The notes under the pieces were generated by a model. The model did not search any database, was not told where the DNA came from, and saw nothing but the letters and a program-made list of their open reading frames with translations. A stretch of 64,000 nt of DNA from Cyclobacteriaceae bacterium. GTDB taxonomy: Bacteria > Bacteroidota > Bacteroidia > Cytophagales > Cyclobacteriaceae. The stretch lies in NCBI GenBank assembly GCA_039970095.1, contig JBDVMP010000018.1, positions 3,492 through 67,491 on the forward strand, in the 5' to 3' direction. The position numbers and the translations under genes are program-made. Position 1 is the first letter of the stretch, and each line of letters starts with the position of its first letter. Positions 5,198 through 23,743 of this stretch are shown one piece after another.

Positions 5198-5327
5198 GTT
5201 GGAGCATAGGTGCTCTTTTGTTCGGGATACAATATCCAAAAGGAGATCATAAAAATCAGACGTTGATCAAGGTTGTGCTTTATCTTTATGGAAATAACCA
5301 TAAAACCTGTTTTCCTGCGTAATTCAT

Positions 5328-5936
5328 ATGCATAGATTTTCGGAAGAGCAAATAGAGATCGTTTCGGAACTGGTTACGGTAGCTTTGAACAAAGCCGTGA
5401 GCTCTATGGAGCAGATGCTGAGGATCAGGATCAAGGCCAACCATATTAAATACAGTCTCGGCCCATTGGAAAACATCCCCGAACTGGATCAGTTGGGGCG
5501 TTTCAAAGCTCATCTGGTCAAGCTTTTGTTTGTTGGAGATATCAGCGGAGCATTTTATTTTATCATTTTGGATCATGAGGTGGATTTGATCAACTCCGTT
5601 TGTCTTCCTGATGAGTTCAAATCAGATAAGCGGGCAGAAAATAAGCTCATGAAACATGGCTTCATGTCTGAGATTGAAAATGTGATTGCAGCACTTTCGG
5701 TAAAGGAGATCTCAGAGGCTCTTGGCGTACAACTAGAGCTGCGTGTACCGAAAATCCAAATTTTACCGGGGGTAGATATCAATGCTTTTTTTGAGAAGGA
5801 AAACAAGATTCACAAAACAGCATTTCATGTCAAATCTGTGCTGGAAGGTCAGGCCGTGAACATTGCGCCGTTTTTCATCTGGATTATGGATGATAAGTTT
5901 TTGGATGTACTCAGGTTGAATACCTCGGGTTCTTGA
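5328..5936 (+). CDS. cheC: CheC-like phosphatase, second paralog, outside the main operon and opposite in strand
   Basis: Similar to 10709-11311; one E-x2-N-x22-P site (SEIENVIAA...LRVP); first site degenerate. Confidence 0.75.
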   Translation: MHRFSEEQIEIVSELVTVALNKAVSSMEQMLRIRIKANHIKYSLGPLENIPELDQLGRFKAHLVKLLFVGDISGAFYFIILDHEVDLINSVCLPDEFKSDKRAENKLMKHGFMSEIENVIAALSVKEISEALGVQLELRVPKIQILPGVDINAFFEKENKIHKTAFHVKSVLEGQAVNIAPFFIWIMDDKFLDVLRLNTSGS

Positions 5937-5948
5937 GTAAAACCCTAT

Positions 5949-6734
5949 CTAAATAGCAAACCCCAAAATCAGGATATCGTCGTACTGCAGAGTGGAGCCT
6001 TGCCAATCTTTGATTTCGGACAAAACGGATTCCTTTTGTTTTACAATGGGCTGGTCTTGAATTTTTGCTAAAATTCTGTGAACACCTTTTGACGACAACT
6101 TTTTCTCATCAAAGCCACCCATTAGGTCTTTAAACCCGTCACTCATAAGGTAAATGTGAGAAGTCACATCCGGCTTTAGTTCTACAGAGGAGGTTTTATA
6201 GTCATGGGGGTATTCGTACATATCGCCCACCTGAAAACGGCTCGCCTTGATCTCCGTTGGCTTATTGTCCTCATATTGAATCAATCCCATTTTGGCCCCA
6301 GAGAACTCAAGCTTTCGTACGTCCAGGTTTACTTTTAGCAACCCCACGTCAGCTGCTGGGCCCATTTGCTTGTTGGACTTTTCTTTGAACTTACTCATGA
6401 GCTGATGGTGCAAATATCTGAGTATAGTGCCAGGGTCAGTAACACCTTCTTCCTTTACTATTTTGTCCAGATACTTTGTATATACGCGGGTCATCATGCT
6501 GGCCAGGTGACCGTGACCCATACAATCGAACAACGAAAGATAAAGATCAGAACCTGCCTGGTGAACCCAAAAGCCATCACCTCCGGCGCTTCCGGTCATG
6601 GGCTTATTGATGATGAAGGCATCTAGCACACTTGCCACAATTTCCTCAGGAAACATAGAGAAGTAGTTTCTCTTTGTCTGGTCCTGATCCGAGGATAGGC
6701 CAAGGTTGAAATATGCGGGTTCCTGATCGATCAT
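5949..6734 (-). CDS. Stand-alone SpoIIE/PP2C (RsbU/SiaA-type) Ser/Thr phosphatase domain
   Basis: GGDGFW, FDCMGHG, LMSDGFKDLMGG, QYDDILILG metal-binding motifs; no sensor domain. Confidence 0.88.
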   Translation of the reverse strand: MIDQEPAYFNLGLSSDQDQTKRNYFSMFPEEIVASVLDAFIINKPMTGSAGGDGFWVHQAGSDLYLSLFDCMGHGHLASMMTRVYTKYLDKIVKEEGVTDPGTILRYLHHQLMSKFKEKSNKQMGPAADVGLLKVNLDVRKLEFSGAKMGLIQYEDNKPTEIKASRFQVGDMYEYPHDYKTSSVELKPDVTSHIYLMSDGFKDLMGGFDEKKLSSKGVHRILAKIQDQPIVKQKESVLSEIKDWQGSTLQYDDILILGFAI

Positions 6735-6742
6735 TGTGAAAG

Positions 6743-7210
6743 CTACTGGAGTCCTATTACCACATATGCTTCATGATTGTTCCACATGATTGGAATGACG
6801 TAGATAGAGACATCATCAGGGATTTTGAGCTGCTCGGGCATGCCCTGAAATACCAAAGGCACGCTTATCATAAAGTTTGCCCCAAGGTTTGCCCGAACGT
6901 TTCCGGCCACAACATTGGAAATTTCACCGGCCATGTCAAGGATGTCCTCATCGGACGGGGTGTCAATACCAATAAATATTTTGATCAAGTCCTCGTACAT
7001 GTCTCTGTTGGCAGAGATATATACGAACCCCTTTCTGTTTCCGGAGATCCCAATCATTCCGGTATAGTCTTTTAGCACCAACCCTTCGGATTCTTTCAGG
7101 TAGGGCACATTCAGCTCAGAGTCAACCTCCGTCAAGTGTCTGAAATAGTTGTTGACTGAATTGATAAACAGGTTACAGGTTGCGTCGAATTCTGCTTTAC
7201 TTGTTTTCAT
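6743..7210 (-). CDS. cheX: CheX phosphatase
   Basis: DYTGMIGISG, DMAGEISNVVAGN (D-x3-E-x2-N), FMISVP. Confidence 0.92.
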   Translation of the reverse strand: MKTSKAEFDATCNLFINSVNNYFRHLTEVDSELNVPYLKESEGLVLKDYTGMIGISGNRKGFVYISANRDMYEDLIKIFIGIDTPSDEDILDMAGEISNVVAGNVRANLGANFMISVPLVFQGMPEQLKIPDDVSIYVIPIMWNNHEAYVVIGLQ

Positions 7211-7273
7211 TAATTCTATAGTTGAAAGGTTTTACTAAGCTATTAAACTTTACCTACTGATGTTGATTTTTTG

Positions 7274-7678
7274 TTATCGTCTTGCACTGTCGCGAATACC
7301 CAAACCCCGATTTGGGCCTGGTCGTTTCAAAAGACGATCAAAGGCTTTAGCCAGATCTTGCGCATTCACGGGTTTGTACAAAAACCCTCTGGCTCCTTTA
7401 TCCAGTGCTTTTAGGCCTGTTAGCTTATCGGAAAGTGCCGTTATGATCATCACTTTCGTTTTAGGGTGTATTTTCATGATTTCATCAAGACAGGCAAGTC
7501 CGTTCATACCGGGCATGGTGATATCGAGGGTAATCACATCTGGCATTTCCGCTCTTACCAACTTGAGCGCTTCATCCCCATCTGCGGCCATCCCTATGAT
7601 TTGAATATCGTATTCATTTAGGTTTTTCTCAATGATGCGTCGCATGATTGAGGAGTCGTCAACTATCAATAGCCTCAT
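7274..7678 (-). CDS. cheY: Stand-alone receiver (CheY-like), coupled to the NIT kinase
   Basis: LIVDDS, ITLDITMP (phospho-Asp), IITA, YKP; ATGA overlap with the kinase stop; 17-aa basic tail. Confidence 0.88.
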   Translation of the reverse strand: MRLLIVDDSSIMRRIIEKNLNEYDIQIIGMAADGDEALKLVRAEMPDVITLDITMPGMNGLACLDEIMKIHPKTKVMIITALSDKLTGLKALDKGARGFLYKPVNAQDLAKAFDRLLKRPGPNRGLGIRDSARR

Positions 7679-10287
7679 TGGTCTTCTTCGGTTTGGTCTT
7701 CTTCCGCTTTGAATGGCAAGCTGATTATGAGTTTGAAGTATTTGTCTTTTTCAAAATCCATTGTGAGCCGCGCTTTCATTTCTTTGGCCAGAGTCTTTAC
7801 AAGGCTCATCCCCTGTCCTCTACCTCCGTGCTCATCGGTTTGGTCAACAGTGGAAATACCGCTTTCGTAAATCAGGTGCATAGCTTTTTTGTCGGTCAGG
7901 TTATCTGCCTCATACTGAGTCACAATTCCCTTTTGTATGGCCTGCGCTTTTATTTTATCCAGATCCAGTCCTCTGCCGTCATCCCTGTAGGTAATGCGCA
8001 GGAGATCTTTTTTGGCTTTGTCCAGGTCTATACTGATACTTCCTCTCAAGAGTTTTCCTGACTTCAACCTCACGTCTCTGTCTTCTATGCCATGTTTGAT
8101 AGAGTTTCGAATAAGCTGTAGCATCATATCCTTGAACGGCTCCACCTGATCATTTGGTAACACAAGGTTGGCTTCATTTTTAAAGAAGAAGTCAACAGGC
8201 TTATCCATTTTTTCTGATAGCACCTTGACCGACCGCTCCAGGTTATCCACTAGCATGATATTGGAAACCACATGACCACCCGTTGGGTACTTCCGGTACA
8301 CATCGGCCACTTTTCTGAGCATAGAGCTCATTTCATCAATCATCTTGTCTGCATCGTCGATTTCATATAGCACCGTGAGGAAATCCTTGCCGGTTATTTC
8401 TTTCAGCTTCAATGCTTCCAATGTGTCTTCTATCACGTGGAATTTCTCGCTCATGATATCCAGCCCAATTACCACAGCATTGGATTTTAGGCTATGTACA
8501 GTTTGGAATGTGAAATCCAAAAGCTCTTTGAGGTTGCTCTCTTTGTCGCTTTCGTATCTTTCTGAAATGCTGCGAAGTGTTCTTTTGGCATTGTAGAGGA
8601 ACCCACGAATCAGACTTGGGTCTATTTTTAGGATGCTCAGCACTTGTTCCGTTTCCTGCTTTTTCTTTTTCTCCGCCTCTTCGAGGTGCTTTTGTAGCAA
8701 TACAGACTCTGTTTCATCGGAGATTGTCACCATGATATTGCTGATGCGGTCCTTTCTCCAAATTCGGGTGAAGTTTACTCTGATGTACTTTGTAGTGACC
8801 ACACCCTCGTTTTCATTGTAAATCTTTACTTGCTCTATGGGGTTGAGTTGGTTCACCACGTCCTCATCCATATCTTCGTTGAACAAGTGGCGCATGAACA
8901 TTTCCAGAGCCTCCAGATCGCGAGGAATGATCAGCGGGCGCATGAAATTGGCGAAGTTCTCGCCCGAAATTTTATCAACACCGAAAATCTTCTCCATTGA
9001 TTTGGAGTAGAGTTTACTCATTTTGAAGTTGCGGTCAAGTAGAAAAATACCCTGATGGATATTTTTGAATACCATGATCGAAACCCTGTAGATGTTGTTG
9101 TATAGAAACTTGGCTTTGTCTCGCTCTTTTCTCAGGATGTTATGTGACTTGTTGATTTCGTCCACCATCACATTGAAAGTTTTAGCGTATTGCCCAATCT
9201 CATCTTTAGTTGGGATGCGCACTTTTTTAGACCAATCGCCCTTGGAAATACGTATGGTAAAGATTTCAAGTGTTTTCACATTGGTCAGTAGGTTGGTGAC
9301 GATGATGGACATAAGCCAGAAAGCCAGCACACCAATGATGATATCGAGCACTATGAATGACCAGAACTTTTTAAATGCTGTACTCGAAAGCTCTACTGTT
9401 CTGTTAAGGAGTCTTTCAGAAATTCTGTCTTCCACCTTTTTCAGGGAGTTGATTTTGCTGGTGGTCATTTCGTACCAGTAACCAGGCTTCACTGCGTATG
9501 CTTCGCGCAGGTGCAATTCCTGACGCAGGCGCTCTACTTCATCCACATCATGACCGGAGATTAGCCTTTCGTAGGTTTTCTGAGACTCAGAATCTGCAAT
9601 GACCAAAAAAGCGTCAGTGTATGCTTGCTGCTGTGCTACCAGGGAAGTGAACTGGGCATAAAGCTCATCGTCCATTTCTTTGCTGGAAAATGCGTGGGTT
9701 CCTATTGCCCTTTCGATGCTTGCTCTTTCTTTGGCTTTCAGGAAATAGATTAATGCATGCACTTGCTGGGCTATTTCTTTGTCCCTTGTTTCGTTGATTA
9801 GCAGATCTACACCATTTAGCGCCACGTTGTTGATATCTGAATAATAGTCCAGCACCATTTCTGCATCCAATGTTCTATCCGCTATTTTGTTGCGGATATT
9901 GGTCAGTGATTCGAACTTTGATTTTAGTAACTCAATATCATTGATATGAATGGCTGTAGCCTTGGCGGTTTCGGCGGTGTTCAGCTCTTCATAAAACCTG
10001 TTGAGTGTGCTATCCGACCTTATTTGCTGCTGCTGAAGAGACTCTAGCAGGTCTGGGTCTTCGGAGGTCACATAGCCTACTGCCATGCTTCTTTCTTTTT
10101 GCAGCTCATGCACGGAGTGGTTAATTTCCACCCCAAGCTGTAGGGTTAGGTTGAGTCTATCTGAGTCAGAGTAATCCAGATAGTTGTGCCGGATTTGCAA
10201 ATAGTCAAAGCAGATAATGATGACTATTAATGGTATGAGAACCACTGCAAATTTTACACGGATAGGCAGGTCATATAATACTCTCAT
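7675..10287 (-). CDS. Membrane-bound CheA-like ('class III') histidine kinase: TM-NIT-TM-HAMP-PAS-like-HPt-HATPase, no CheW domain
   Basis: NIT motifs HELQKERS and KERASIER; HAMP DEIGQYAKTFNVM; HPt VHSLKSNA (His598); CheA-type P4 LIRNSIKHGIE, DDGRGLD, SGIST, GRGQGMSLVK; protein ends after P4. Confidence 0.88.
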   Translation of the reverse strand: MRVLYDLPIRVKFAVVLIPLIVIIICFDYLQIRHNYLDYSDSDRLNLTLQLGVEINHSVHELQKERSMAVGYVTSEDPDLLESLQQQQIRSDSTLNRFYEELNTAETAKATAIHINDIELLKSKFESLTNIRNKIADRTLDAEMVLDYYSDINNVALNGVDLLINETRDKEIAQQVHALIYFLKAKERASIERAIGTHAFSSKEMDDELYAQFTSLVAQQQAYTDAFLVIADSESQKTYERLISGHDVDEVERLRQELHLREAYAVKPGYWYEMTTSKINSLKKVEDRISERLLNRTVELSSTAFKKFWSFIVLDIIIGVLAFWLMSIIVTNLLTNVKTLEIFTIRISKGDWSKKVRIPTKDEIGQYAKTFNVMVDEINKSHNILRKERDKAKFLYNNIYRVSIMVFKNIHQGIFLLDRNFKMSKLYSKSMEKIFGVDKISGENFANFMRPLIIPRDLEALEMFMRHLFNEDMDEDVVNQLNPIEQVKIYNENEGVVTTKYIRVNFTRIWRKDRISNIMVTISDETESVLLQKHLEEAEKKKKQETEQVLSILKIDPSLIRGFLYNAKRTLRSISERYESDKESNLKELLDFTFQTVHSLKSNAVVIGLDIMSEKFHVIEDTLEALKLKEITGKDFLTVLYEIDDADKMIDEMSSMLRKVADVYRKYPTGGHVVSNIMLVDNLERSVKVLSEKMDKPVDFFFKNEANLVLPNDQVEPFKDMMLQLIRNSIKHGIEDRDVRLKSGKLLRGSISIDLDKAKKDLLRITYRDDGRGLDLDKIKAQAIQKGIVTQYEADNLTDKKAMHLIYESGISTVDQTDEHGGRGQGMSLVKTLAKEMKARLTMDFEKDKYFKLIISLPFKAEEDQTEEDQ

Positions 10288-10315
10288 CTTAGGCTTGGTC
10301 GGTTGATGAATTCGC

Positions 10316-10684
10316 CTAGCTTTCGCTAAACACCTTGTTTACCACCTCAACTAATGCTTCTGAGGTGAAAGGTTTTACAATATAATCAGATGCTCCGAGC
10401 TCTTTGCCCTTGTTGATAACAGTTTGTTGACCAACTGCGCTGATCATGACAATTTTTGATTCCAACCCCTGATCTCTCAAGACTTTTAAGATTTCAAACC
10501 CCATCATATCCGGCAGAATGTTATCCAATGTTATCAGGTCGGGTTCGGTTTCCATGGCCAGGTCTATTGCAGACTCGCCATCTTTTGCTTCGCCTATGAC
10601 CTCATATCCGGCTTCTTCCAGAGCGGTCCTGATCAGGGATCTCATATAAATTGAATCGTCAACTATTAATACTGTATTGCTCAT
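10316..10684 (-). CDS. cheY: CheY response regulator
   Basis: LIVDDS, ITLDNILP, ISAVGQQ, IVKPF; Bacillus/Thermotoga-like SAxGQQ. Confidence 0.9.
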   Translation of the reverse strand: MSNTVLIVDDSIYMRSLIRTALEEAGYEVIGEAKDGESAIDLAMETEPDLITLDNILPDMMGFEILKVLRDQGLESKIVMISAVGQQTVINKGKELGASDYIVKPFTSEALVEVVNKVFSES

Positions 10685-10708
10685 TGTAGCGTTGTTAAAT
10701 TCTTCTCT

Positions 10709-11311
10709 TTAAACTAAGTCTTTTATTTTGTTCATAAACTCTTCGTGAAACACCCAGATAAAATCCGGAGATATATCCATTTCCATGCCTTGAAAATTTG
10801 CTTTGAAATGGATGATTGAATCAAAACCAGAGGTTTGCTTTTCCAGATATGAGTTGATATCCCGGCTGCTAATCACGTCCAGCGAAGGTACCATGCCGTA
10901 AATTTCCAATCCGAGAAAATTGGAAAACTCTGTGATCACCGCTGCGGCCATCATGTTATCCACTTCTGTGAGAAAACCCATTTTCATCATTTTACTTTCA
11001 GCGCTTTGGCTTTCTATGATGGTGGCGGGTAGGCAGGCACGGTATATTTTGTTTACCTCGTCTTCGGTGAAGATCAGGTGGCTCATTCCTTTGAGCTCTC
11101 CCATCAGGTCCGTTTTAATGAGGTGAACAGATTGCTCCGGCTCTTTTGCGAATCTGGGCAGGGCGTCTTTTATTTTATCACTGTAATCAACTTTTACCAT
11201 GGAAATGGGGCTTTGCAAAATTTGCTCCATGGACTTTTTGGCCATCGACATTCCGTCGAATACGAGCTTGGAGGCGACCTCCAGTTCGGCTTGGTTTAAT
11301 TTGTCTAGCAT
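10709..11311 (-). CDS. cheC: CheC-like phosphatase
   Basis: TEVDNMMAAA...GMVP fits E-x2-N-x22-P; located between two cheY genes. Confidence 0.8.
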   Translation of the reverse strand: MLDKLNQAELEVASKLVFDGMSMAKKSMEQILQSPISMVKVDYSDKIKDALPRFAKEPEQSVHLIKTDLMGELKGMSHLIFTEDEVNKIYRACLPATIIESQSAESKMMKMGFLTEVDNMMAAAVITEFSNFLGLEIYGMVPSLDVISSRDINSYLEKQTSGFDSIIHFKANFQGMEMDISPDFIWVFHEEFMNKIKDLV

Positions 11312-11444: not shown

Positions 11445-11807
11445 TTATTGAAGCAAAAGCGCTAATTCTTCCAACAATTGTTCCTCTGAAAAGGGCTTAA
11501 TTAAGTATGCTTTTGCGCCGAGCGACATGGCTTCTTCTATAGCTGATTGCTGCCCTACTGCACTGATCATGATTGTGCAATGTGCTATCTTCTCCTGATT
11601 CAGAATCTGGAGTATCTGGATGCCGGTCATATCAGGCAAAATATTGTCCAGCGTTATGATGTCAGGCTTGAGCAGGGATATTTTGTCCAGAGCCTCTTCT
11701 CCGGTTTTTGCTTCCCCAACCATCTCATAGCCGGCCTTTGCAATCGTGTTTTTAACGGACATCCGGGAATATGCCGAGTCATCTACAACTAATACTCGTG
11801 GCTTCAT
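11445..11807 (-). CDS. cheY: CheY response regulator
   Basis: LVVDDS, ITLDNILP, ISAVGQQ, LIKPF; ATGA overlap with cheR. Confidence 0.9.
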   Translation of the reverse strand: MKPRVLVVDDSAYSRMSVKNTIAKAGYEMVGEAKTGEEALDKISLLKPDIITLDNILPDMTGIQILQILNQEKIAHCTIMISAVGQQSAIEEAMSLGAKAYLIKPFSEEQLLEELALLLQ

Positions 11808-12667
11808 AGTTTGACTGTTTTGTGCTTACGATAAACCTTGGTTTTGATATCTTCTACTTTGAAGAGTTTCTTTCCAGCCTCAGGCATGATGTCATAATAG
11901 CCAATGATAAGGTAACCATCGGGCCGGAGGCAGTCGTATATCATCTGAAGGACTTTCATCTTGAGTTTTTCGTCGAAGTAGATCATTACATTTCTACAAA
12001 AGACAATGTCGTAACTGCCAGTAACCGGATCATGCACCAGGTTGTGCTTCTCGAACTGAACATTTTCTTTATACAAGGCCTTAATGGTGGCATGCTTGTG
12101 GTGAAAGTCGAAATAGTCTTCCAGTTTTCTTCCGGGAAAAAACTTTAGAAAGGGAGTGAGGTATTGCTTGATGACCTCCAGAGGGTAGTCTCCTTTGCGC
12201 GCCTTGTTCAGGGCCTTGGAACTCAGGTCTGATGCCGCCAATCTCGAGCTGGTGCGCATGTTTAGTTCTTCTAGAACAATGCCCATGGTATACACTTCCT
12301 CTCCGGTGGAGCACCCGGCATGCCATATGTTTAATGGCTGTTTTTGGAACGTGGGAAGGATTTCATCTCTGAGCTTGATCCAGACATCTGGGTTTCTAAA
12401 TAGCTCAGTCAGGTTGACGAGGAGGTCATCGATGGCGGCATTAAAAAAGACTGAGTCTTTGAGGATTCGGCCCCACAAATCAAGTGAAGACTCCATGCCA
12501 TGTTTCATCATGAGCCTGTTCACCCCGCGCTTGAGGGACTGTTTTTCATAGTTGGTAAAATCAAGGCCGTATCGGTTTTTGATGGCCACCATCAGGGCGG
12601 TCATCTCTTCGTCCGTTATGAGTTCGGCGGTTTTATGCATGTTGGCCAATGCCCCGGTCATCTTCAT
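11804..12667 (-). CDS. cheR: Chemotaxis methyltransferase CheR
   Basis: VNLTELFRNP, IWHAGCSTGEEVYT, DIVFCRNVMIYFD; ATGA overlap with cheA. Confidence 0.96.
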   Translation of the reverse strand: MKMTGALANMHKTAELITDEEMTALMVAIKNRYGLDFTNYEKQSLKRGVNRLMMKHGMESSLDLWGRILKDSVFFNAAIDDLLVNLTELFRNPDVWIKLRDEILPTFQKQPLNIWHAGCSTGEEVYTMGIVLEELNMRTSSRLAASDLSSKALNKARKGDYPLEVIKQYLTPFLKFFPGRKLEDYFDFHHKHATIKALYKENVQFEKHNLVHDPVTGSYDIVFCRNVMIYFDEKLKMKVLQMIYDCLRPDGYLIIGYYDIMPEAGKKLFKVEDIKTKVYRKHKTVKL

Positions 12668-14349
12668 TTGGTTCTCTGTAGTGCTTGTTTGTGTACCGTG
12701 TCAGTGAGTACAGTAATGTCGATTACAGGGCAAACTTTTCCACTACCTAGAATTGTAGCTCCACTGATGAGTTTGATGTTTTGCAATGGGGGAGCCAGGG
12801 GCTTTTCAATAATTTCTTTTTGCTGTAGAACTTTGTCAACGACAATTCCGGTGGTGCGATCGCCATAGGAAACGATGATTACATCAAAAGGCTTGTTTTC
12901 TCCTAGTTCAAAAGTTTTATGAAGAGCTCCCCGATAATGCGCATCTGAAAGCTGATCCATCTCTAAAAGATCCTGAAGAAAAACCAGAGAGACGGCCTCA
13001 CCCTGAAAGTCTGTTGTGAGTCCTGGGCCTAATTTTTGAATTTCACTTTTTTGACGCGTGATAACAGCTTCTGTATAGGAAAGAGCAATGGCGTATGTCT
13101 GATTTTTTATTTCGAAAAGCAAGGTTCCTTTCAGCGCCAAAGAAGCCGGAACGTGAAGTTCTATTCTTGTGCCTTCTCCCTTTGTTGTTTCGATTTTGAC
13201 CTGGCCACCTACAGACTCTACGGCCTTTTTCACCACATCCATTCCCACTCCACGACCGGAGATCTCGCTTACCTTGTCTGTGTTGGAAAAACCGGATGCA
13301 AATATGAACTGAATTACTTCCGAATCGGGGAGGCTTTCCCCGACCTGTTTTGACACCAGCTTGCGCGCGATGATTTTGGCTCTGATCGTTTCCACATCTA
13401 TCCCTGCCCCATCGTCTGTTACAGATATCACGACCCGATCTCTTTCATATGCTGCTGCCAACTCTACCTGACCATCGCTGTTTTTGGAGGCTTTTTTTCT
13501 TTTTTCGGGGCTCTCGATCCCGTGACTCACGGCATTGCGTATCAGGTGAACGAGGGAATCACCGATAATTTTTAGAATATTTCTGTCTATTTCAACATCA
13601 GTTCCTTTGAGGATCAGACTCACTTTTTTGTTTTCAACAGCCGAAGCATCGCGTAACACACGGTGAAACTTATTGAAAAGAAAGCCGACCTGAACCATAC
13701 GCACGTTCATGATGCTATACTGAAGGTTGGAGGAAATGCGCTTGAGCGCATCCAGCTCAGAAGTCCCTCTTCCGAGTTGCTCTGATAAACTGATGAGCCG
13801 ATCTCTTTCTATAATGAGCTGTCCCACTTCGTTCATCATTTCATCCATTTTTTTCACTGGCACCTGGATCACATCCGAAAACGAGATTTGGCTTTCAGGT
13901 TGTTCCTGCTCTGTTTCTTCCTCTGCGTGAGTAGTTTCTTCCTCTGCATTTTCATCTTTGGCGGCCAGTGCCTTTTGGAGAAAGAGTGTCAGGCTGGTTT
14001 TTATACCGAGATAACTCACTTTCTGGTCTGTTTCTAATGCTGTGACGAGGCTTTTGAGCTTATCGTTTGCACGAAATATCAGATTAAAAAGGTCAGCACC
14101 AAGCCGTATTTTTTCTTCCTGTATGGCGAGCATGACATCTTCTATAGTGTGGGATAGCTCTGCGATGGCATCAAAACCCATGCCCATGGCATTGCCCTTC
14201 ATGGTGTGGGTGATTCGGAAGATTTCTTTTATGGCCCGACTGTTTTTGTGGTCTTTTTCAAGGTCCACAAAAAGTTTGTCCAGGTGTTCCTGGTTGTCTT
14301 TTGCTTCGACAAGGAAGAGCTCTTTATATTCTGATTCTTTTGATTTCAC
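12664..14349 (-). CDS. cheA: Chemotaxis histidine kinase CheA (P1-P3-P4-P5, no P2)
   Basis: GTG start; HPt FRITHTMKGNA (His48); short acidic linker; P3 VPVKKMDEMMNEVGQL; P4 HLIRNAVSHGIE, DDGAGID, SGRGVGMDVV; C-terminal CheW domain. Confidence 0.96.
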   Translation of the reverse strand: MKSKESEYKELFLVEAKDNQEHLDKLFVDLEKDHKNSRAIKEIFRITHTMKGNAMGMGFDAIAELSHTIEDVMLAIQEEKIRLGADLFNLIFRANDKLKSLVTALETDQKVSYLGIKTSLTLFLQKALAAKDENAEEETTHAEEETEQEQPESQISFSDVIQVPVKKMDEMMNEVGQLIIERDRLISLSEQLGRGTSELDALKRISSNLQYSIMNVRMVQVGFLFNKFHRVLRDASAVENKKVSLILKGTDVEIDRNILKIIGDSLVHLIRNAVSHGIESPEKRKKASKNSDGQVELAAAYERDRVVISVTDDGAGIDVETIRAKIIARKLVSKQVGESLPDSEVIQFIFASGFSNTDKVSEISGRGVGMDVVKKAVESVGGQVKIETTKGEGTRIELHVPASLALKGTLLFEIKNQTYAIALSYTEAVITRQKSEIQKLGPGLTTDFQGEAVSLVFLQDLLEMDQLSDAHYRGALHKTFELGENKPFDVIIVSYGDRTTGIVVDKVLQQKEIIEKPLAPPLQNIKLISGATILGSGKVCPVIDITVLTDTVHKQALQRTK

Positions 14350-14351
14350 GC

Positions 14352-15377
14352 TTATAAACAGTTTACCAAATAACCTCCGATTTCGTTGATGTTTAAAACC
14401 ACGGCCGCAGCACCCTTTTCCCGGGCTATTTTTGGCATGCCATAGATGATACTCGAAGCTTCATCCTGAGCAATCGTAAGGCCGCCGGCTTCTAAAATTT
14501 TGCTGAGTCCCTTTACTCCGTCTTTGCCCATGCCCGTGAGCAACACACCTATCGCTTTTTGCCCAAATGTTAATGCTACAGACTCTAAAAGGGCGTTTAT
14601 GGAAGGGTTGTTGTATTCTTTATATTCCTGACCTGAAAAACCAATAGTATATGTTTCTCCCTTCTTTTTTATAACGGTGTTGCCTTCTCCGCTGGCAATC
14701 ACGATCATGCCTGGTTTGATAACGAGACCTTCTTTACTGACTACCACATCAAGGTTGCTGAGCGAGTTGAGGCGTCTGGCAAAAGAACGAATGAAGTTGT
14801 GAGGCATGTGCTGTCCAATAACAACGGGAACGTTTAGGTTGGCCGGAAGCGAGGTGATTATTTTTTCTATGGCTGTTGGCCCACCTGTAGATGCCCCGAT
14901 GGCGATAATGTCATATTGAGGCTGGGGCTCAAATGTGTGTGTGAGCTGATTGAGACCTGCTTCTTGTATGTGAGTTGGTTTTGGCCGGGCGCCTGCTACT
15001 TTTTTTATTCTGGCGATAAGCTGTGCCTCCATTTCCCGAATCTTGGAACCACCCTTTTTTGGTTTGTTGATATAGTCAACCGCGCCGAGCCTAAGGGCAT
15101 CAAATATTGGATCCAGGTTTGTGTTGCCGACGGAGCTCAAAATCAGGATAGGGCAAGGGCAGTGTTTCATGATTTGCTCCACGGCGTAAAGCCCATCAAA
15201 ATCGCCCATGTTCATATCGAGCAGAACCAGGTCTGGTTTCAACTGTGCTGTTTGCTTTACGGCCTCCTTGCCATCTGTCGCAGTACCGATTACCTCAATT
15301 TCGTCATCTTTTGAGAGGAGGTCTCCGAGTAGGAGCCGCATAAAAGCGGAATCATCGACTACTAGTATTTTAATCAT
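14352..15377 (-). CDS. cheB: Chemotaxis methylesterase CheB (REC + esterase)
   Basis: N-terminal REC; catalytic GASTGG, QHMP, LTGMGKDG. Confidence 0.97.
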   Translation of the reverse strand: MIKILVVDDSAFMRLLLGDLLSKDDEIEVIGTATDGKEAVKQTAQLKPDLVLLDMNMGDFDGLYAVEQIMKHCPCPILILSSVGNTNLDPIFDALRLGAVDYINKPKKGGSKIREMEAQLIARIKKVAGARPKPTHIQEAGLNQLTHTFEPQPQYDIIAIGASTGGPTAIEKIITSLPANLNVPVVIGQHMPHNFIRSFARRLNSLSNLDVVVSKEGLVIKPGMIVIASGEGNTVIKKKGETYTIGFSGQEYKEYNNPSINALLESVALTFGQKAIGVLLTGMGKDGVKGLSKILEAGGLTIAQDEASSIIYGMPKIAREKGAAAVVLNINEIGGYLVNCL

Positions 15378-15383
15378 GCGCCT

Positions 15384-16115
15384 TTATCTGGTGGTTGGCG
15401 TTTTTACCTGAGATTGCATTCGGTCGCCTTCTATAAGCTCATCAATATCTATAAAAAAGGCCATTTGCCCCTCATACCTGACCACACCTTTGATATAAGT
15501 TTCTTCACGTGGTAGTTCCGTCACGGTACCTGATGCTACTTCAATATCTGAACCATTTACGCGTATGTTTCCAGGAACTTGCGGAAGCAAGATCCCCACG
15601 GTGAATCTCTCACTGGAGACAATCATGGTATATGTATAAGCAGCGCTTGGTTTCTCTAAACCGAGTTTCTGCGCCAGGTCGATTAAAATGATGCTATTGT
15701 TTCTGATAGTGGCAATACCGGGAATGTAGTCGGGTGTCCTGGGAACGGCGGTCACCTGCGGTGTTTTTACCACTTCGTTTACCTTGTTTATTTCCACAGC
15801 AAAGTCATTTCCGGAAAGGTTAAAAACCACCAGATGGGCTTTGGTGTCTGCTAGTGATGTTATTTCTGTTCTGAACTTTTGGTGAAGGGCTTCTCTTCTC
15901 AGCACTTCATCCGGAGAAATTAAACCCTCTGTCTGAGCCTTCGTTGTTTTAGGTTTTTGGCTTTGTTTCTTTTTAGCTTTTACCGTCGCTTTTGGGGCAT
16001 GCTTTGGTTCAATTAACTTTTTGGGCGCAATTTTTTTCTTCTTCTGTATTGTGGTTTTATCCTTCACCAGAGGAGGAGCCGACTTTGTTTTTTTAAGGTT
16101 GTTTCCCAGTGCCAT
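15384..16115 (-). CDS. cheW: CheW with long Lys/Pro-rich N-terminal extension
   Basis: LVVFNLSGNDFAVEINKVNEVV, TAVPRTPDYIPGIATIRN; ~65-aa basic N-terminus starting MALGNNLKK; TAATG overlap with parA. Confidence 0.88.
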   Translation of the reverse strand: MALGNNLKKTKSAPPLVKDKTTIQKKKKIAPKKLIEPKHAPKATVKAKKKQSQKPKTTKAQTEGLISPDEVLRREALHQKFRTEITSLADTKAHLVVFNLSGNDFAVEINKVNEVVKTPQVTAVPRTPDYIPGIATIRNNSIILIDLAQKLGLEKPSAAYTYTMIVSSERFTVGILLPQVPGNIRVNGSDIEVASGTVTELPREETYIKGVVRYEGQMAFFIDIDELIEGDRMQSQVKTPTTR

Positions 16116-16861
16116 TACTTTATTGTTTTCAAAAGCTCTTTGGTGAATGATCTGTAGTCCTGTGCGCTTGATGAAGACGGGGAGTAAGTAAGCACACTTT
16201 GTCCAAAAGAGGGTGCCTCAGAAGCGCGAACATTTGTTCTGATATAATTTGAAAAAATTTTGTAGGTGTAATTTTCCCTGATGTGATCCATGATTTCATT
16301 GCTGAGCTTGCGACGTTTGTCTAGCATGACCGGCAATATCCCCAAAACTGCCAGTTTGGGGTTTGAGGTGTTACGGATTTTTTCGATGGTATCTGATATG
16401 AGATCCAGACCCTGAAGGCTGAGTACCTCCATTTGCATGGGAATGATAATTTTGTCAGCACAAGTGAGTGCATTTATAGTCATGAGTGAAAGCGACGGAG
16501 GGCAATCAATCAAAATATGATCATAATCGTTTTTGACCTCATCGAGAATTCCCTGCAGGATTGACTCGCGATTGTGCTCTTCGGCAATGGCCAGCTCCAG
16601 ATCAGCGAGTGATACATCGGAAGGGGCAATATCCAGCTCTTCGCGTGATACGATTATGTCTGTTATTGCTACTTCACCCTGGATAACCTCTGCCATGCTA
16701 CTTTCGGCATGCTGTATGCCCAAAGAATATCCCAAGCTTCCCTGAGCATCCATATCTACAAGCAAAACACGTTTTTTGGATTCACTCAGTCCTCGACCAA
16801 GGTTGATTGTCGTGGTGGTTTTTCCAGTTCCTCCTTTTTGGTTGACAATTGCTATGATCAT
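16115..16861 (-). CDS. parA: ParA/Soj-family ATPase within the che operon (ParC/PpfA-like role inferred)
   Basis: Deviant Walker A NQKGGTGKTT, LVDMDAQG, LIDCPPSL, SEAPSFG. Confidence 0.92.
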   Translation of the reverse strand: MIIAIVNQKGGTGKTTTTINLGRGLSESKKRVLLVDMDAQGSLGYSLGIQHAESSMAEVIQGEVAITDIIVSREELDIAPSDVSLADLELAIAEEHNRESILQGILDEVKNDYDHILIDCPPSLSLMTINALTCADKIIIPMQMEVLSLQGLDLISDTIEKIRNTSNPKLAVLGILPVMLDKRRKLSNEIMDHIRENYTYKIFSNYIRTNVRASEAPSFGQSVLTYSPSSSSAQDYRSFTKELLKTIK

Positions 16862-17038: not shown

Positions 17039-17458
17039 CTAAGACAAGACCCTCGTTTTCAATCGGCTTTGAGCGGCGATTACTTTTAGTTCTTCGGTTG
17101 TACGCATACAAAATGGGAGACTCAATAGGTCGCTAAAGTCTTCACCGCATTCCAGCATGTCTTCATCATACTCATCGTAATACCAGTTTACCCGAATCTT
17201 AGTGCCGGATTTTTCGAAGGTCTTCACCTTTTTGAGAATTTCATAAATACACTTCGCACTAGATGTATTGAACATACTGAAACACATATTTACAACCAGA
17301 TGTTTCGGCGTAGACGGACAGTTTGTGAGGTTGTCCATAATCGGTTTGTAGAAGGAAATGCTATGATCGGGAGAGGATAAACCCTTGATGTCTAAACGAC
17401 CCCTGTCCAGATCTAACCTGACTAATGGGGTTTTGTTGGTTGGTTTGATTAATAGCAT
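17039..17458 (-). CDS. SiaC-family (DUF1987) regulatory phosphoprotein
   Basis: KPTNKTP, KGLSSP, FYKPI, FNTSSAK (Thr65), VNWYYDEYDEDMLECGEDFS. Confidence 0.85.
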   Translation of the reverse strand: MLLIKPTNKTPLVRLDLDRGRLDIKGLSSPDHSISFYKPIMDNLTNCPSTPKHLVVNMCFSMFNTSSAKCIYEILKKVKTFEKSGTKIRVNWYYDEYDEDMLECGEDFSDLLSLPFCMRTTEELKVIAAQSRLKTRVLS

Positions 17459-17569: not shown

Positions 17570-20095
17570 CTATTCCTCTATGTTGATGTGATTGGCCTCT
17601 TTGGTAATGTCTCTTGAGATACCGAATGTACCAATGATTTTGCCGTCAGTATCTTTGAGAGGCATTTTGGTGGTGGAGACAGTTTTTACTGACCCATCTG
17701 GTTGATCTACTTTCTCAACCAAATTCATTAATGGCTCGCCTGTATTGATAATTCTTTGCTCGTCTTCATAGGCTTTTTGTGCATGGTCGCTGTAGAAGTC
17801 AAAGTCGGACTTACCGATCATTTCTTCCAAGTTCTCAACGAGATGTCCGTAAGACTTGCTCACTCGGGTAAACTTGCTGTCTTTATCCTTGAAATAGATG
17901 TAGTCCGGCATATTGTTGAGAAGAGCGTCGAGATAACTTTTTTCCTTTTCGAACATCATTTGGTTCATTTTCAGGTCTGTGATGTCTCGAGATATTCCGA
18001 AGGTACCAATGATGTTTCCATCTACGTCTTTGAGAGGCATTTTAGTGGTGGACAGGTATTTAATCTCACCATTTTTGAGATCCGCTTTTTGCACGATGTT
18101 GATCAGAGGCTTATTGGTGCGGATTATTTGTTGTTCTTCTTCATAAGCTACACGAGCATGCTGTCCATGGAAGTCAAAATCAGATTTTCCTAAAATCTCA
18201 TTTTGGTGGTCCATTCCAAAACGCGTAATGTGAGATTGGCTGTTTCTGATAAACTTACTGTCTTTGTCTTTGAAGTAGATAAAATCAGGGCTGTTGTCCA
18301 GCAGAGCGTCCAGTAGGCTTTTCTCCTTTTCGTAAGCTTCGCGCATTTGAAACAGTGCGTTGTTTTGTTGGCTTTGTCCGGAGAGTCTAACCATGCTGAT
18401 CCCTTCGCTGAATTTTTCTGCCACTTCGGCCAGACTTTGGGCCTTTTCATTATAGCTGCCCATTCCGGACGACAACTCTGAAGCAGAGCTGGCCACTTCT
18501 TCTGTGCCAGCAGCGGTTTGCTCGGCAATGACCACAACACTTTCGGTGATGGTCACCACGTTGTTGATGCTGCTAATCTGGTTTTGTGCCGAAGTGAGTA
18601 TGTCTTCAGAGAAGCTTAATGTATTATTAGAAGAATTTAGAATTTCTTTGAAAGACGTTGAGGCGGTCTGAGATGTTTCTTCTCCTCCTTTGACGACCTT
18701 TTTCATTTGCTCCATTACTTTCACAGCGTCTTCAGTATCTGCATGTACACTGTTAACGAGTTTTTCAATTTCCTTTGCCGACTTTCTGGAGTCTTCGGCC
18801 AGCTTTCTTATTTCCTCTGCTACTACGGCAAAACCTCGTCCAGAATCTCCTGCTTGCGCTGCTTCAATGGCTGCATTGAGGGCTAAAAGGTTTGTTTGCG
18901 CCGCTATTTCCGTTATCACACTGAGCGCACTTGATATTTCGCTGCTTCGCTCATTTAGCACTTGCATGGAGGAGTCCGTTTTGTTACTAAACTCGGAAAT
19001 TTCCTTCATGCTGTTGACCACATTATCTATTAGGTTCATGCCGTTTTCGCTGCTTTTAGCTCCGGTTTTGGCAGCTTCATTGATGGCTTCAGACTTGATG
19101 ACCATCTTTTTGGAGTCTTCCAGAATCCTTTCCATAAGTGCGGAGGATTCATCAACTTTTGAGACTTGGTTTTGTGCTCCATTGCTCATCTGAGCAATGG
19201 CAGAAGCGATCTCATTGGTGTTGGCGTTCATCTCTTCGCCGGTTACTTTCATTTCAGTAGCAGACTCGTCGATGACCTTCACATTTTCAGAGATCTGATG
19301 AAGAAGGCCGTCAAGGTTGTCTAAAGCCAGGTTAAGGTTGGTAGCCATGGTTTTTATTTCTCCCTTAGCTTCTTCTTTGTAGCGTAGCGTTAAATCACCA
19401 GAAGACATGGCTTTTACTATTTTGTTGATTGCTGCAAATGGAGTAGCAATACTTTCAAGCAGCTGATTTACGTTTGACGAAAGTCTCAGCCATACGCCCT
19501 CTTTGCCGGATAGCCCGATACGTTCATTAAAGTGACCATCTTCCCCGGCACTTTTTACCACTTCATTGGTTTCACCCACCATCATTTTTAAGTTTTGGCG
19601 CATGCTGATCAAAGAGTTTCCGAGTAAATCGTTTTCTCCTTTGGTATGGTACTCAGTGTCAAGGTTACCTTGAGAAATATCCTGCGCGAAAGAAGCAGCC
19701 TGCTTAACAGCCTCCAACAGGCTATTCATAGCCACAGATAACAACCCGACCTCATCTTGCCGCTTGATCAAATCCTCTGGAATGTTACTTACTTCTCCAG
19801 AGGTCAGAAGGCTCACTCGTTTGGATATTCGGTGGATCGGTATGCTGAGTATGATGAAGCAATACCTGAAATATGCCGATGTAACAAGGCAGCCTAGAGG
19901 TAAAACCCAGGCTAAATGTATAAGTCCTTTTTCAGCCACAAAATATCCAAAAACGGACATCATGATAAGAAGTACGATCAGTGGCCATGACAGCTTAAAT
20001 AGTAGCGTTTTTTTGAACAATAGCCTTACCGACATGAAACTTAGCGGTGCGGCAATTAAAAGAAGGATTAGGGTAAAAATTGAAAAATCACTCAT
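17570..20095 (-). CDS. Methyl-accepting chemotaxis protein: ~3 TM, no periplasmic sensor, multiple HAMP, signalling domain, two C-terminal PAS domains
   Basis: [34 protein letters not shown]; two PAS repeats [13 protein letters not shown] / [13 protein letters not shown]...[23 protein letters not shown] after the hairpin. Confidence 0.93.
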
Positions 20096-20141
20096 TGCTG
20101 GTTGTTATTTGGGTTTGCTGGTTATGGGGTTGGAAAGTTTG

Positions 20142-20669
20142 TTAAATCATTTTTAATATATCAACTAAAAAGATCATTTGATCTTCGTGTTTGGCAATTC
20201 CGACAATGAACTCATCGTCTTCAGTTAAGTTTTGTAAGACGGAGGCAGACTTGTTGATACTGGGTTCTTCAATCATGACTGTTTTGGGCACTGTTTTAAC
20301 TAAAATTCCGGCTTGAAATTCTTCACTGTTGATTACCAGAACGAAAGCCGTGTGGTTTGGAGTTTTTGCTGGTGAAGTGGATACTCTGGATTCAGCGTCC
20401 ACGATGCTAATCACAGAGCCTCGCACATTCGTCACACCCAAAATGTAATCTTGTGTTTGGGGAATGGGAGAAATATCCGGGGCGTTTACTACTTCTTTCA
20501 CGTCATGGATGGGTGCTCCGTATTGCTGATCGCCCAGCTGGAATACCACGATGGCTTCCTTTTTTATCGTGTCCTGCGTGCCGTGAACCAGTTGGGTTTT
20601 TTCGGCATGATCAACCCAGCTTTTTCCTTCAGGTATCAATGAATTTGTATTTTGGGAAGGTTTACTCAC
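20142..20669 (-). CDS. cheW: CheW coupling protein
   Basis: GTG start; IVVFQLGDQQYG, VKEVV, ISPIPQTQDYILGVTNVRGSVI; between the two MCP genes. Confidence 0.93.
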   Translation of the reverse strand: MSKPSQNTNSLIPEGKSWVDHAEKTQLVHGTQDTIKKEAIVVFQLGDQQYGAPIHDVKEVVNAPDISPIPQTQDYILGVTNVRGSVISIVDAESRVSTSPAKTPNHTAFVLVINSEEFQAGILVKTVPKTVMIEEPSINKSASVLQNLTEDDEFIVGIAKHEDQMIFLVDILKMI

Positions 20670-20676
20670 GTAAGTT

Positions 20677-23184
20677 TTAACTTAATCTAAACTTGCTTAT
20701 TCTCTCATTCAAACCTACTGCGACCTGAGATAGGTCTGCTGTCTTCTCATTGTAGTTGTCCATACCGGCCGAAAGCTCGGTGGCAGAACTTGCAATTTCC
20801 TCAGTGCCCGCAGCAGTTTGCTCAGCTATTACCACCACAGATTCGGTGATGGTCACTACGTGTTTGATAGCATCTATTTGCTGGAGCACATGGTTTCTGA
20901 TTTCGTCTGATACGTTGAGATTGGCATTGGCCGACTCATATATTTCGTTGAATGCATCCGAAGCATGTTTTGTGGCATCCTCCCCACTTTGTACACTGGC
21001 CTTCATCATTTCTATGGCTGTACTGGCACTGGATACATCCTTCTTCACGTCCAGAATAAGCTTTTCTATTTCTTTCGCCGATTTGCGAGAGTCCTCGGCC
21101 AGCTTGCGAATTTCCTCAGCCACCACTGCAAAGCCACGTCCTGCATCCCCAGCCTGGGCGGCTTCTATGGCGGCATTGAGTGCCAGTAAGTTTGTTTGAG
21201 CTGCAATTTCGGTTATGACCGAAAGGACACTGGAGATCTCATTCGAACGATCCGTTAGGACCTGAATGGAGTTGTAAGTTTCGCCCGAAAAAGCAGAAAT
21301 ATCACGCATGCTAAACCCTGCCTTTTTTACCAACTTCAGCCCTTTGTCGCTGTTGTCGGAGACCTCCTGGGCTACACTTTTGATTTTATCGGCCTGATCT
21401 CCCATCTTGTTTGAGGACCTGAGGATTCCTTCTACCAGGTTGGAAGACTCATCTACTTTTGTCACCTGATTTTGTGCTCCACGGCTCATTTCTGAAATAG
21501 AAGAGGCAATTTCACGGGTGTTGAGAGTCATCTCTTCATTTACACCGAGCATTTCCACAGCAGAATCAGCCACACGCTTGGATCCTGCCAAAATTCCCTT
21601 GATCAGGTCGCTGATGTTATCAAGGGCGGAATTTAGGTTGTTGGAGAGTACCTGTATATCTCCTTGTACATTGCTGCTAAACCTTACGGTGAGGTCCCCA
21701 TCAGCCATGGCGTTTACCACATGGTTTATTTCTTTGAATGGGTTTGCCAGAGAGTCGAGAAGCGAGTTTATCGAATCGCTAAGCTCTTTCCACGCACCAT
21801 TTTCCCAGTCAGTCTCAATCCGCGCGGTGCTTAGTTCGCCGGATTCTCCTGCTCTTTTCACCACAGTGTTGGTTTCACTGATAACTGTCTCCAGGTTTTC
21901 GCGCATGCGCAAAAGTGCATACCCCAGCATATCCCGATCGCTCGATACTTCAAAAGATTCTGACAGGTTGCCTAGACCAATCTGATGTGCAAAGTTTGAC
22001 TTATATATCAACTGATCCATTAGGTGATTTGCGGAAGTTGCCAGCTGACCGATTTCGTCTGAGGACTTGAAGTCCAGCCTGTTTTCCACATCTAAATCTC
22101 CCGTTGACAGCCGTTGTAGCATTTCGCTTGATTGATCCAATGATCTGGCGATGGAGGTAGCAATTTTGTAGGTAATGATAATGAGTATTATCAGCCCGAT
22201 CAGTCCCACAGCAATAGTTGCAAAGAATGTTCTGGCGATGGGGCCGGTTATTTCCTTGATGGGGATTTCCAAACCGGCAGACCATGGGGATTTCGAATAT
22301 CCAATTTCTATAGGAGCAAAAGCGATCATCACCTCTTCCTTGCCAAAACCAGCGTTATTTGCAGTAAAAGACGTTGTTTCTCCGTTAGCGATGATTGACT
22401 TTAAGTCAAAACCCAGACTTTGATAAAACGGCAATGAATCCAATGGCTGGTTGGCATATTTAAGGTTTTCGTGGGTAATTACGGTTCCTTTGTTTGAAAC
22501 AAGGAAAGCAAAGCCTCTATCGAAAAAGTCTATCTCAGACATTGATTCAAAGTCATCCAAAAACATGTCTGTTCCGATCAGTCCGGCAAATTTTCCATCT
22601 AGCATGATGGGGGCTTCCGGAGAAACACCCAGCAACAATTCGTCTGATTTTCCTCCATAGGCAGCAAATTTGTAGGGCTCGCCAATGATTTCTTGCGGGT
22701 TTTGTTTGATGTAGGAATACAGCCCCGTTTCAGGGTCGCCGTTCAGGTTATCCAGACGAATGTGCTCCTGAACATCACCATCATCGAGGTAATAGGTGGC
22801 CCTTTCACGACCGAAGGGTTTGTCCCACTCCGGGTCTATGGACCAGAGCTCGTAACTCATCCAGGCGGCCTCATATTTGGGGTTTGATTTGAGGGCGCCA
22901 ATCATGATTTGTTTTCTAACTTCAGTTCTTTGGTCTGCGGGAAGAGAAAGCGCGGCTTCCATGGCTGTGGCCATAGACCGAGTCACGGCAATGTCTTCAC
23001 TCAAAATCCTGGAGATTTCATTTGCCTTCTGGCTTGCAGCTGTATTTACCAGCTTCCACCCCTCTTCTATCGCCTGATTTCGCAGGCTCAGTGTGATATA
23101 GCCCAGCGTAAACACGTACGTCAGTATCATGGTGCCTATGATAAACACCATCATTTTTTTTCGAATGCTAAAATTCAAGTTCAT
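20677..23184 (-). CDS. Methyl-accepting chemotaxis protein with periplasmic dCache domain and multiple HAMP
   Basis: TM1, ~290-aa periplasmic region ([26 protein letters not shown]), TM2, HAMPs, [29 protein letters not shown]. Confidence 0.94.
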
Positions 23185-23740: not shown

Positions 23741-23743
23741 GGG

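Follow-up and report, generated by a model that had tools for sequence, protein, structure and literature searches.

A NIT-bearing class III histidine kinase module joined to the che operon of a Cyclobacteriaceae bacterium

We describe a chemosensory gene cluster in a stretch of 64,000 nucleotides from a gliding, marine Cyclobacteriaceae bacterium (Bacteroidota; Cytophagales; GenBank assembly GCA_039970095.1, contig JBDVMP010000018.1, positions 3,492 to 67,491 of the forward strand), the whole of which is called the window here. The last four genes of the cluster encode a membrane-bound sensor kinase (P0001), a single-domain response regulator (CheY_a), a CheX phosphatase and a stand-alone PP2C phosphatase. 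The best overall explanation is that they are a class III histidine kinase (HKIII) module that has its own sensor and has been joined to a che operon; we put the probability of this explanation at about 0.7. An earlier note, made from the sequence letters, had proposed a CheA-like kinase that is independent of receptors, and the kinase does have its own sensor and no P5 domain. Four things escaped that note: the absence of P3, the standing of CheY_a and CheX as inherited partners, the link of the PP2C to SiaC-type switching, and the lack of PilT.

HKIIIs reportedly have a sensor, lack a dimerisation domain, contain a CheA-like kinase and have a response regulator and CheX as partners. The traits found here are the following: a sensor and an Hpt with its His on the same polypeptide, a CheA-like ATPase, no P3, and a response regulator and CheX adjacent. 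By its architecture the kinase belongs to HKIII. The order of its parts is transmembrane segment (TM1), NIT, second transmembrane segment (TM2), HAMP, PAS-like domain, Hpt with His598, and CheA-type ATPase. This is the order given by the earlier note, and Pfam, PDB and AlphaFold results agree on it, the PAS-like domain being assigned by model topology alone. The parts are as follows.

7675..10287, minus strand: NIT-HKIII sensor kinase, 870 residues, P0001 (open reading frame; Pfam, NCBIfam and PDB matches; AlphaFold; Foldseek)
10195..10263, minus strand: TM1, residues ~9-31 (hydropathy scan; helix in the AlphaFold model)
9409..10113, minus strand: periplasmic NIT domain, residues 59-293 (Pfam E 8e-51; alignment with NasR, 4akk)
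9286..9366, minus strand: TM2, residues ~308-334 (hydropathy scan)
9151..9285, minus strand: HAMP, residues ~335-379 (Pfam HAMP 3.6e-05 over 344-379; helices in the model)
8716..9102, minus strand: PAS-like alpha/beta domain, residues 396-524 (AlphaFold topology)
8290..8619, minus strand: Hpt four-helix bundle, residues 557-666, His598 codon at 8494-8496 (weak Pfam match; CheA P1 structures; model)
7711..8271, minus strand: CheA-type (P4) ATPase domain, residues 673-859 (Pfam HATPase_c 718-859; 1i58; Foldseek)

The two hydrophobic segments bracket the NIT domain, and the motifs picked out earlier lie where they were placed, LQKERS at residue 62, KERASIER at 186 and VHSLKSNA at 597, which makes the histidine His598. 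In PDB sequence searches, the Hpt matches the CheA P1 structures 1tqg and 2ld6, and the AlphaFold model sets His598 on the second helix of the 557-666 bundle. This residue is kept in 34/34 orthologues and in 61/63 members of the wider family; Lys601 is kept in 34/34 and 63/63. The ATPase domain matches the P4 domain of Thermotoga maritima CheA (1i58) at E 3e-28, with a Foldseek TM-score of 0.8-0.9 and a root-mean-square deviation of ~2 Å, and is also matched by the NCBIfam CheA models. Its catalytic boxes are intact: N728 (N box), DDGRG 769-773 (G1) and GRGQGM 822-827 (G2).

Pfam finds no CheW, H-kinase_dim or HisKA domain in the kinase, as the earlier note had held for CheW. In the AlphaFold model, the linker from Hpt to P4 is six residues long, too short to accommodate a P3; likewise, there is no P5, since the protein ends 11 residues after P4. 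P1, P3, P4 and P5 are present in every CheA (Berry et al. 2023, PMC10782961). Therefore, the kinase, which has a P1-type Hpt and a P4 and lacks both P3 and a P5 or CheW-like domain, is not a CheA. It is not a classical HisKA kinase either, as it has an Hpt instead.

Upstream of the Hpt, the model has a PAS-like domain of ~130 residues joined to it by a coiled-coil helix. Its five-stranded sheet is formed by strands 413-417, 422-427, 486-493, 496-511 and 514-524. Pfam gives no match to residues 396-524, and the domain is nevertheless the best-conserved stretch of both the protein and the family core (alignments A1, A2 and A3). The model is a monomer with a mean pLDDT of 77.7 and a predicted TM-score (pTM) of 0.41; its single domains are taken to be reliable, their mutual arrangement is not.

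The extent of the class was gauged by searching residues 560-870 against 1.84 billion cluster representatives at a cut-off of E<1e-30, which gave 99 matches. In nearly all 99, the Hpt-P4 match extends to the C-terminus and is preceded by an N-terminal region of 0-1400 residues. A domain scan took in 63 of these representatives (set A2). It found HATPase_c in 63/63 and Hpt in 47/63, CheW in 0/63 and H-kinase_dim in 0/63, and the PAS-like-Hpt-P4 core keeps a constant length of 455-480 residues across the family. The sensors vary: PilJ in 14, HAMP in 11, NIT in 7, MASE6 in 7 and an ammonium transporter in 3, together with PAS, GAF, Cache and others. The earlier assignment to class III, with cheX and cheY alongside, thus agrees with all 63 sampled relatives, which have the same core, and with a response regulator and CheX orthologous to those of stand-alone modules. 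The core is rare in its surroundings, occurring in 2/151 genomes sampled across the order and 4/401 across the phylum.

Some observations on the family may be added. The HKIII sensors lean towards nitrogen compounds (PilJ 14, NIT 7 and fused ammonium transporter 3 of 63), and in one locus (L024) an Amt gene lies directly upstream of an HKIII. Chemosensory genes as such are rare in the order; 7/151 sampled genomes have an Hpt/CheA-type match at E<=1e-10. Three seemingly full-length HKIIIs from Proteobacteria and Planctomycetes (L070, L075 and L090) were rejected, each being a NIT protein beside an ordinary CheA.

The partners of the kinase are encoded directly downstream, and the organization is as follows.

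7274..7678, minus strand: CheY_a, single-domain response regulator (Pfam; its start overlaps the kinase stop, ATGA)
6743..7210, minus strand: CheX, CheY-P phosphatase (PF13690, E 2e-19)
5949..6734, minus strand: stand-alone PP2C, 261 residues, SpoIIE-type, SiaA-like catalytic domain (Pfam SpoIIE 1.5e-11)

The ATGA coupling reported earlier is a real overlap at 7678, and the genes that follow are, as had been said, cheX and a PP2C without a sensor, SpoIIE being its single domain. In other lineages, HKIIIs stand alone, with no che genes nearby. The layouts found are HKIII-RR-CheX (L020; RR, response regulator), HKIII-RR-CheX-PilZ (L023), NIT-HKIII-RR-CheX-SiaC (L025), NIT-HKIII-RR-CheX (L026) and RR-NIT-HKIII-CheX-SpoIIE (the P0144 locus). 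The response regulators adjoining stand-alone HKIIIs have 41-67% identity to CheY_a and 29-36% to CheY_b and CheY_c, the two CheYs of the che operon, and the CheX proteins of stand-alone modules are 38-61% identical to that of the window. On this evidence, CheY_a and CheX are the inherited partners of the kinase; judged by sequence, they are orthologous to the proteins beside stand-alone HKIIIs. CheX is 79-100% conserved in orthologous loci, and its D-x3-E-x2-N motif is present as DMAGEISN. CheY_b and CheY_c, with 50% mutual identity, and CheC go with CheA.

The alignment of NIT-HKIIIs (A4) was used for a survey of 42 loci in Cytophagales-type genomes, 41 of which have downstream sequence. The synteny that the earlier note named as a check is largely there: the kinase-CheY-CheX triad occurs in 41/41 informative loci, a PP2C gene 3′ of cheX in 32/41, and a che core upstream in 34. 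Since the PP2C gene also follows cheX in stand-alone loci (L050 and L066), it is a part of the NIT-HKIII module and not of the che operon. Kinase, CheY, CheX and PP2C form one inherited module. The recurrence of PP2C or SiaC next to NIT-HKIIIs is a new result.

In a maximum-likelihood tree, the che-embedded copies make up one clade (36 rows) with one change of state; none of the stand-alone copies belongs to it. The pattern fits one event in which the module was joined to the 3′ end of the che operon, with vertical inheritance afterwards, down to ~45-50% kinase identity. The synteny of module and che operon is kept in Marinoscillum, Ekhidna, Roseivirgaceae and related metagenome-assembled genomes. 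Cultured strains with the complete, conserved system are Marinoscillum furvescens DSM 4134, M. luteum KCTC 23939, M. pacificum, Ekhidna lutea DSM 19307 and Ekhidna sp. To15.

The gaps between genes from cheC to the PP2C gene are -4 to 63 nt, and co-transcription of the module with the che genes is therefore likely. Among sequencing runs, those that contain the window sequence proved to be assembled from DNA, with contigs of 20-180 kb and flat depth. Three RNA runs labelled as the same species have zero reads of the window, and another RNA run contains chance matches of 18-35 nt only. A scan for sigma-70 promoters and terminators gave fewer sites than shuffled sequence, with a consensus that is wrong for Bacteroidota. 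None of the intergenic gaps of the cluster contains the Bacteroidota -7 motif TAnnTTTG, a weak piece of negative evidence.

Further observations concern single members of the family. CheY_a ends in a basic C-terminal tail, KRPGPNRGLGIRDSARR (residues 118-134, window 7274-7330), which CheY_b and CheY_c do not have and which could be a docking peptide. In the NIT-HKIII paralogue P0144, the phospho-acceptor His is replaced by Glu and the G2 box contains a Phe, while the response regulator, CheX and SpoIIE flank is retained; from its sequence, P0144 is probably a pseudokinase. In L023, PilJ-HKIII-RR-CheX is followed by a PilZ-domain gene (10318-10752) that overlaps the last part of cheX; this hints at a link to cyclic di-GMP in another branch of the family. 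In L026 (2558-3025), a gldH gliding-lipoprotein gene lies directly upstream of the stand-alone NIT-HKIII-RR-CheX, an adjacency that may be accidental. A Marinoscillum-type che/HKIII cluster with 71% kinase identity is found in a metagenome-assembled genome labelled 'Rickettsiales bacterium' (L018/L058, PBTY01000042.1); this copy nests among Marinoscillum in the tree, and the contig is probably mis-binned or mislabelled.

The whole cluster is a compact row of genes on the minus strand, running from 23184 to 5949, che genes first and kinase module last (Pfam, NCBIfam). The order from 5′ to 3′ is MCP (Cache-HAMP-MA), CheW, MCP (HAMP-MA-2xPAS), SiaC-family, ParA, CheW, CheB, CheA, CheR, CheY_c, CheC-like, CheY_b, kinase, CheY_a, CheX, PP2C. 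The genes other than those of the module are the following.

17570..23184, minus strand: MCP (HAMP-MA-2xPAS), CheW (175 residues) and MCP (Cache-HAMP-MA) (Pfam)
17039..17458, minus strand: SiaC-family phosphoprotein, candidate PP2C substrate (PF09345 4.3e-33; NCBIfam SiaC 1.1e-18)
15384..16861, minus strand: CheW (243 residues) and ParA-type ATPase (Pfam)
11804..15377, minus strand: CheR, canonical CheA (P1-P3-P4-P5, 561 residues) and CheB (Pfam)
12664-14349, minus strand: the canonical CheA within this segment (Pfam)
11445..11807, minus strand: CheY_c (Pfam)
10709..11311, minus strand: CheC-like phosphatase, 200 residues (NCBIfam CheC 6.6e-08)
10316..10684, minus strand: CheY_b, CheA-pathway type, 50% identical to CheY_c (Pfam)
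5328..5936, plus strand: the other CheC-like paralogue; it and the PP2C gene are convergent (NCBIfam)

The set upstream of the kinase is complete, with two MCPs, two CheWs, CheA, CheB, CheR, two CheYs and CheC, which bears out the earlier statement that a full MCP-CheA pathway is adjacent. An unorthodox soluble chemoreceptor is reportedly a frequent neighbour of HKIIIs; both MCP genes of the operon lie 7-13 kb upstream of the kinase, and neither adjoins it. The genome, whose assembly is 98.5% complete, has a single copy each of CheA, HKIII, CheX, CheR and CheB and two each of CheW, CheC paralogue and full MCP; all are encoded in this cluster, its single che cluster. It encodes GldM of the gliding/type IX secretion machinery and has no FliG.

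The two CheC-like paralogues share 29% identity. Both lack the N-terminal E-x2-N active-site motif, and the second site (ExxN...P) alone is recognisable; the position of the plus-strand copy beside the PP2C gene is kept in the Marinoscillum group. A strain ~98% identical in a 2015 DNA run has the same gene arrangement over window positions 4500-24000, with 382 differences in 19.5 kb and one 1-nt deletion at 23339, which is intergenic.

We propose the following mechanism. The kinase would be a membrane dimer, with the periplasmic NIT domain signalling through TM2, HAMP, the family-specific PAS-like domain and the coiled-coil helix to the Hpt, where His598 would be phosphorylated by the CheA-type ATPase domain directly behind it. 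The kinase's own sensor would set its activity. Because the kinase has neither P3 nor P5, no docking to CheW or receptor arrays is expected. The phosphoryl group would pass to the translationally coupled CheY_a, with CheX resetting CheY_a-P. Output would most likely run through the sensor-less PP2C, whose substrate would be a SiaC-type phosphoprotein and whose opponent would be a SiaB-family kinase with its gene elsewhere in the genome. Joining of the module to the che operon, at its 3′ end, would have happened a single time, in an ancestor of the Marinoscillum/Ekhidna group, and one cluster would thereby supply an array-dependent pathway (MCP-CheW-CheA to CheY_b/c and CheC) and an array-independent one.

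A number of points weigh against this explanation. The class criteria are reportedly those of Adebali et al. 2017 (J Bacteriol 199:e00218-17), cited for HKIII in one sentence of PMC6501615. That paper, and not Wuichet and Zhulin 2010 as named in the earlier note, is the dedicated description of HKIII. A literature search found no experimental work on any HKIII; the class is described bioinformatically only. The earlier note had looked to a domain scan for NIT and Hpt and for the lack of CheW; NIT and the lack of CheW were borne out, and the Hpt was not fully so, its Pfam match at 588-629 (E 0.0089) lying under the gathering cut-off. We infer the signalling path and any dimer, since the model is a monomer at pTM 0.41 with the HAMP-PAS linker 381-401 unmodelled. 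On the output side, the PP2C is lacking from 9/41 NIT-HKIII loci, SiaC lies within the flank of only a few, and the cluster contains no SiaB kinase, the only SiaB-family kinase of the genome being on contig C29. On the input side, the nitrate-pocket residues of NasR are themselves only proposed (PMC7496416), and the case of PA4520, whose NIT domain fails to bind nitrate or nitrite, makes a NIT domain no safe predictor of its ligand (PMC6381276).

This last point leads to the rival that survives best, in which architecture and phosphorelay are as proposed and the NIT domain binds a ligand other than nitrate or nitrite, or no small anion at all. We judge it to be a little short of an even bet. 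Besides PA4520, it is favoured by the suggestion that NIT is a superfamily with differing specificities (PMC6381276) and by the low identity to the NIT domain of NasR (sequence match E ~1e-12). However, residues R66, E192 and R193 align with NasR R50, E175 and R176 and are invariant in NIT-HKIIIs down to 34% identity. Some NIT chemoreceptors respond to nitrate or nitrite, e.g., Dickeya Dd15070 (PMC10832524), and HKIII relatives carry ammonium-transporter sensors and PilJ, the type of domain used by McpN to bind nitrate. The earlier note had cited McpN as a NIT-domain nitrate sensor, which is incorrect, as McpN senses nitrate via PilJ and not via NIT (PMC6381276). The genome, moreover, encodes NirB and a 1172-residue NasA-like nitrate reductase, and nitrate assimilation would make this anion physiologically relevant. 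Nitrate or nitrite as ligand of the kinase is accordingly credible, at slightly less than even chances.

The reductase is a single 1172-residue open reading frame at C88:3086-6571, in which a NapA/NasA-like molybdopterin part is combined with a NirB-like flavoprotein N-terminal part; by its sequence, this fusion is probably an assimilatory nitrate reductase. The NirB encoded on contig C93 is separate from it.

A second rival separates the HKIII module from the che genes in function, leaving it a mere genomic neighbour with its own PP2C/SiaC partner-switch output, e.g., cyclic di-GMP, adhesion or biofilm. The same triad does occur by itself, in genomes or at loci that have no che genes close by, CheY_a is of a different response-regulator lineage than CheY_b/c, and PP2C, SiaC or PilZ follow CheX in stand-alone modules. 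Against this, at least 35 genomes from several genera have kept the che linkage since the single joining, the genes remaining tightly spaced and kinase identity falling to ~45-50%, and in L025 CheC-CheY_b immediately adjoins the kinase. Functional separation is a possibility that we hold at roughly one in three, and the joined module is the reading retained here.

As to the output of that module, the catalytic Asp motifs usual for a PP2C are all present in this one, and Pfam finds no sensor, receiver or other regulatory domain in it. Its closest named relative is the catalytic part of SiaA (NCBIfam 1.7e-32; 112.8 bits vs. an equivalog cut-off of 700). The SiaC-family protein of the operon scores 114 bits with PF09345 (cut-off 24.5) and has the FNTSS phosphorylation motif, and in L025 a SiaC gene follows cheX. 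That CheY_a controls the PP2C, which in turn acts on SiaC, is the best hypothesis available for the output, one that we put forward tentatively. Elsewhere in the genome, C29:9753-17108 contains a full SiaABC-like set, namely a sensor-HAMP-PP2C (642 residues), an RR-PP2C (415 residues), a histidine kinase, the SiaB-family kinase (186 residues, 128.9 bits) and a SiaC paralogue, and two tandem SiaC paralogues lie at C53:38791-39761.

It is tempting to go further and to propose, for gliding Cytophagales devoid of flagella and type IV pili, an operon of two kinase classes, in which a receptor-array CheA and an array-independent, nitrate-sensing HKIII converge, via three CheYs, CheC, CheX and PP2C/SiaC, on gliding or adhesion. 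We consider this unlikely as a whole, gliding or adhesion as the final target being inferred. If true, the convergence would give an HKIII its first function, and one that departs from the pilus hypothesis in print; it would also be the first signalling input to be defined for gliding in Bacteroidota.

Two further rivals have very little left to them. That the kinase is a degenerate CheA paralogue, truncated and fused to a receptor remnant, functionless or a phosphate sink, could be argued from its CheA-like P4 and the canonical cheA gene beside it, yet the two P4s are only 30% identical, His598 and all catalytic boxes are conserved, mean column identity across orthologues is 68%, and the architecture recurs throughout a large family, in which the core is constant and a response regulator and CheX belong to the kinase; we regard it as highly improbable.

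The other is that the module modulates type IV pilus-based motility. pilT is reportedly present in all HKIII genomes, and control of this motility is said to have been proposed for the class. The proposal is echoed in PMC6501615. The PilT family model has no match at all in the genome studied here, 98.5% complete as noted, although it matches related ATPases in 13/14 control genomes; PilT is above the curated cut-off in 0/22 HKIII-bearing Bacteroidota genomes, and a T2SSE-type ATPase of any kind is absent from 13/22, the genome studied included. The absence of PilT across the HKIII-bearing Bacteroidota genomes sampled is a new result and argues against the pilus hypothesis in this clade, leaving it only a slight chance. 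It removes the sole proposed HKIII function for the clade, and the recurrent PP2C and SiaC neighbours suggest a different one.

At the level of the system, the fusion to a CheA operon, the NIT sensor, the PP2C/SiaC link and the lack of PilT make this arrangement a new variant. A literature search found no characterised counterpart, nor any characterised two-kinase chemosensory system in a gliding Bacteroidota, as the earlier note had supposed. Since cultured strains have the conserved system, for which a ligand candidate can be named and the phospho-acceptor and partners are defined, HKIII function and the chemosensory output of gliding Bacteroidota become directly testable at this locus.

A comparison with known systems is instructive. 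Like SiaABCD of Pseudomonas aeruginosa, the cluster contains a PP2C whose catalytic domain resembles that of SiaA and a SiaC-family protein with FNTSS, and a SiaB-family kinase is encoded in the genome. In contrast to SiaABCD, the PP2C is without a HAMP or membrane sensor part, the cluster is without SiaB and SiaD, the scores lie under the equivalog cut-offs, and there is a link to a CheY/CheX module that is not known for SiaABCD. With NasR, Dickeya Dd15070 and Pectobacterium PacN, the kinase has in common the NIT fold, all-helical and with a Foldseek TM-score of 0.65 against NasR (4akk), and the Arg/Glu pocket residues; its output is a CheA-type kinase, whereas theirs is an ANTAR or MCP signalling domain. 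With canonical CheA, both that of T. maritima (1b3q, 1i58) and the one encoded at 12664-14349, it shares the aHxLKg motif of the Hpt, the P4 fold and the ATP boxes, and differs in being membrane-bound, with its own sensor and without P2, P3 and P5. The closest likeness is to the HKIII class itself: a sensor on the same chain, an Hpt and CheA-like ATPase, no dimerisation or CheW domain, and a response regulator and CheX adjacent, with a conserved PAS-like domain preceding the Hpt throughout the family as sampled here. Unlike the class as it is reported to be, with pilT in all its genomes, the module occurs in genomes without PilT; it has a NIT sensor and a PP2C, and it forms the end of a complete HKII (CheA) operon.

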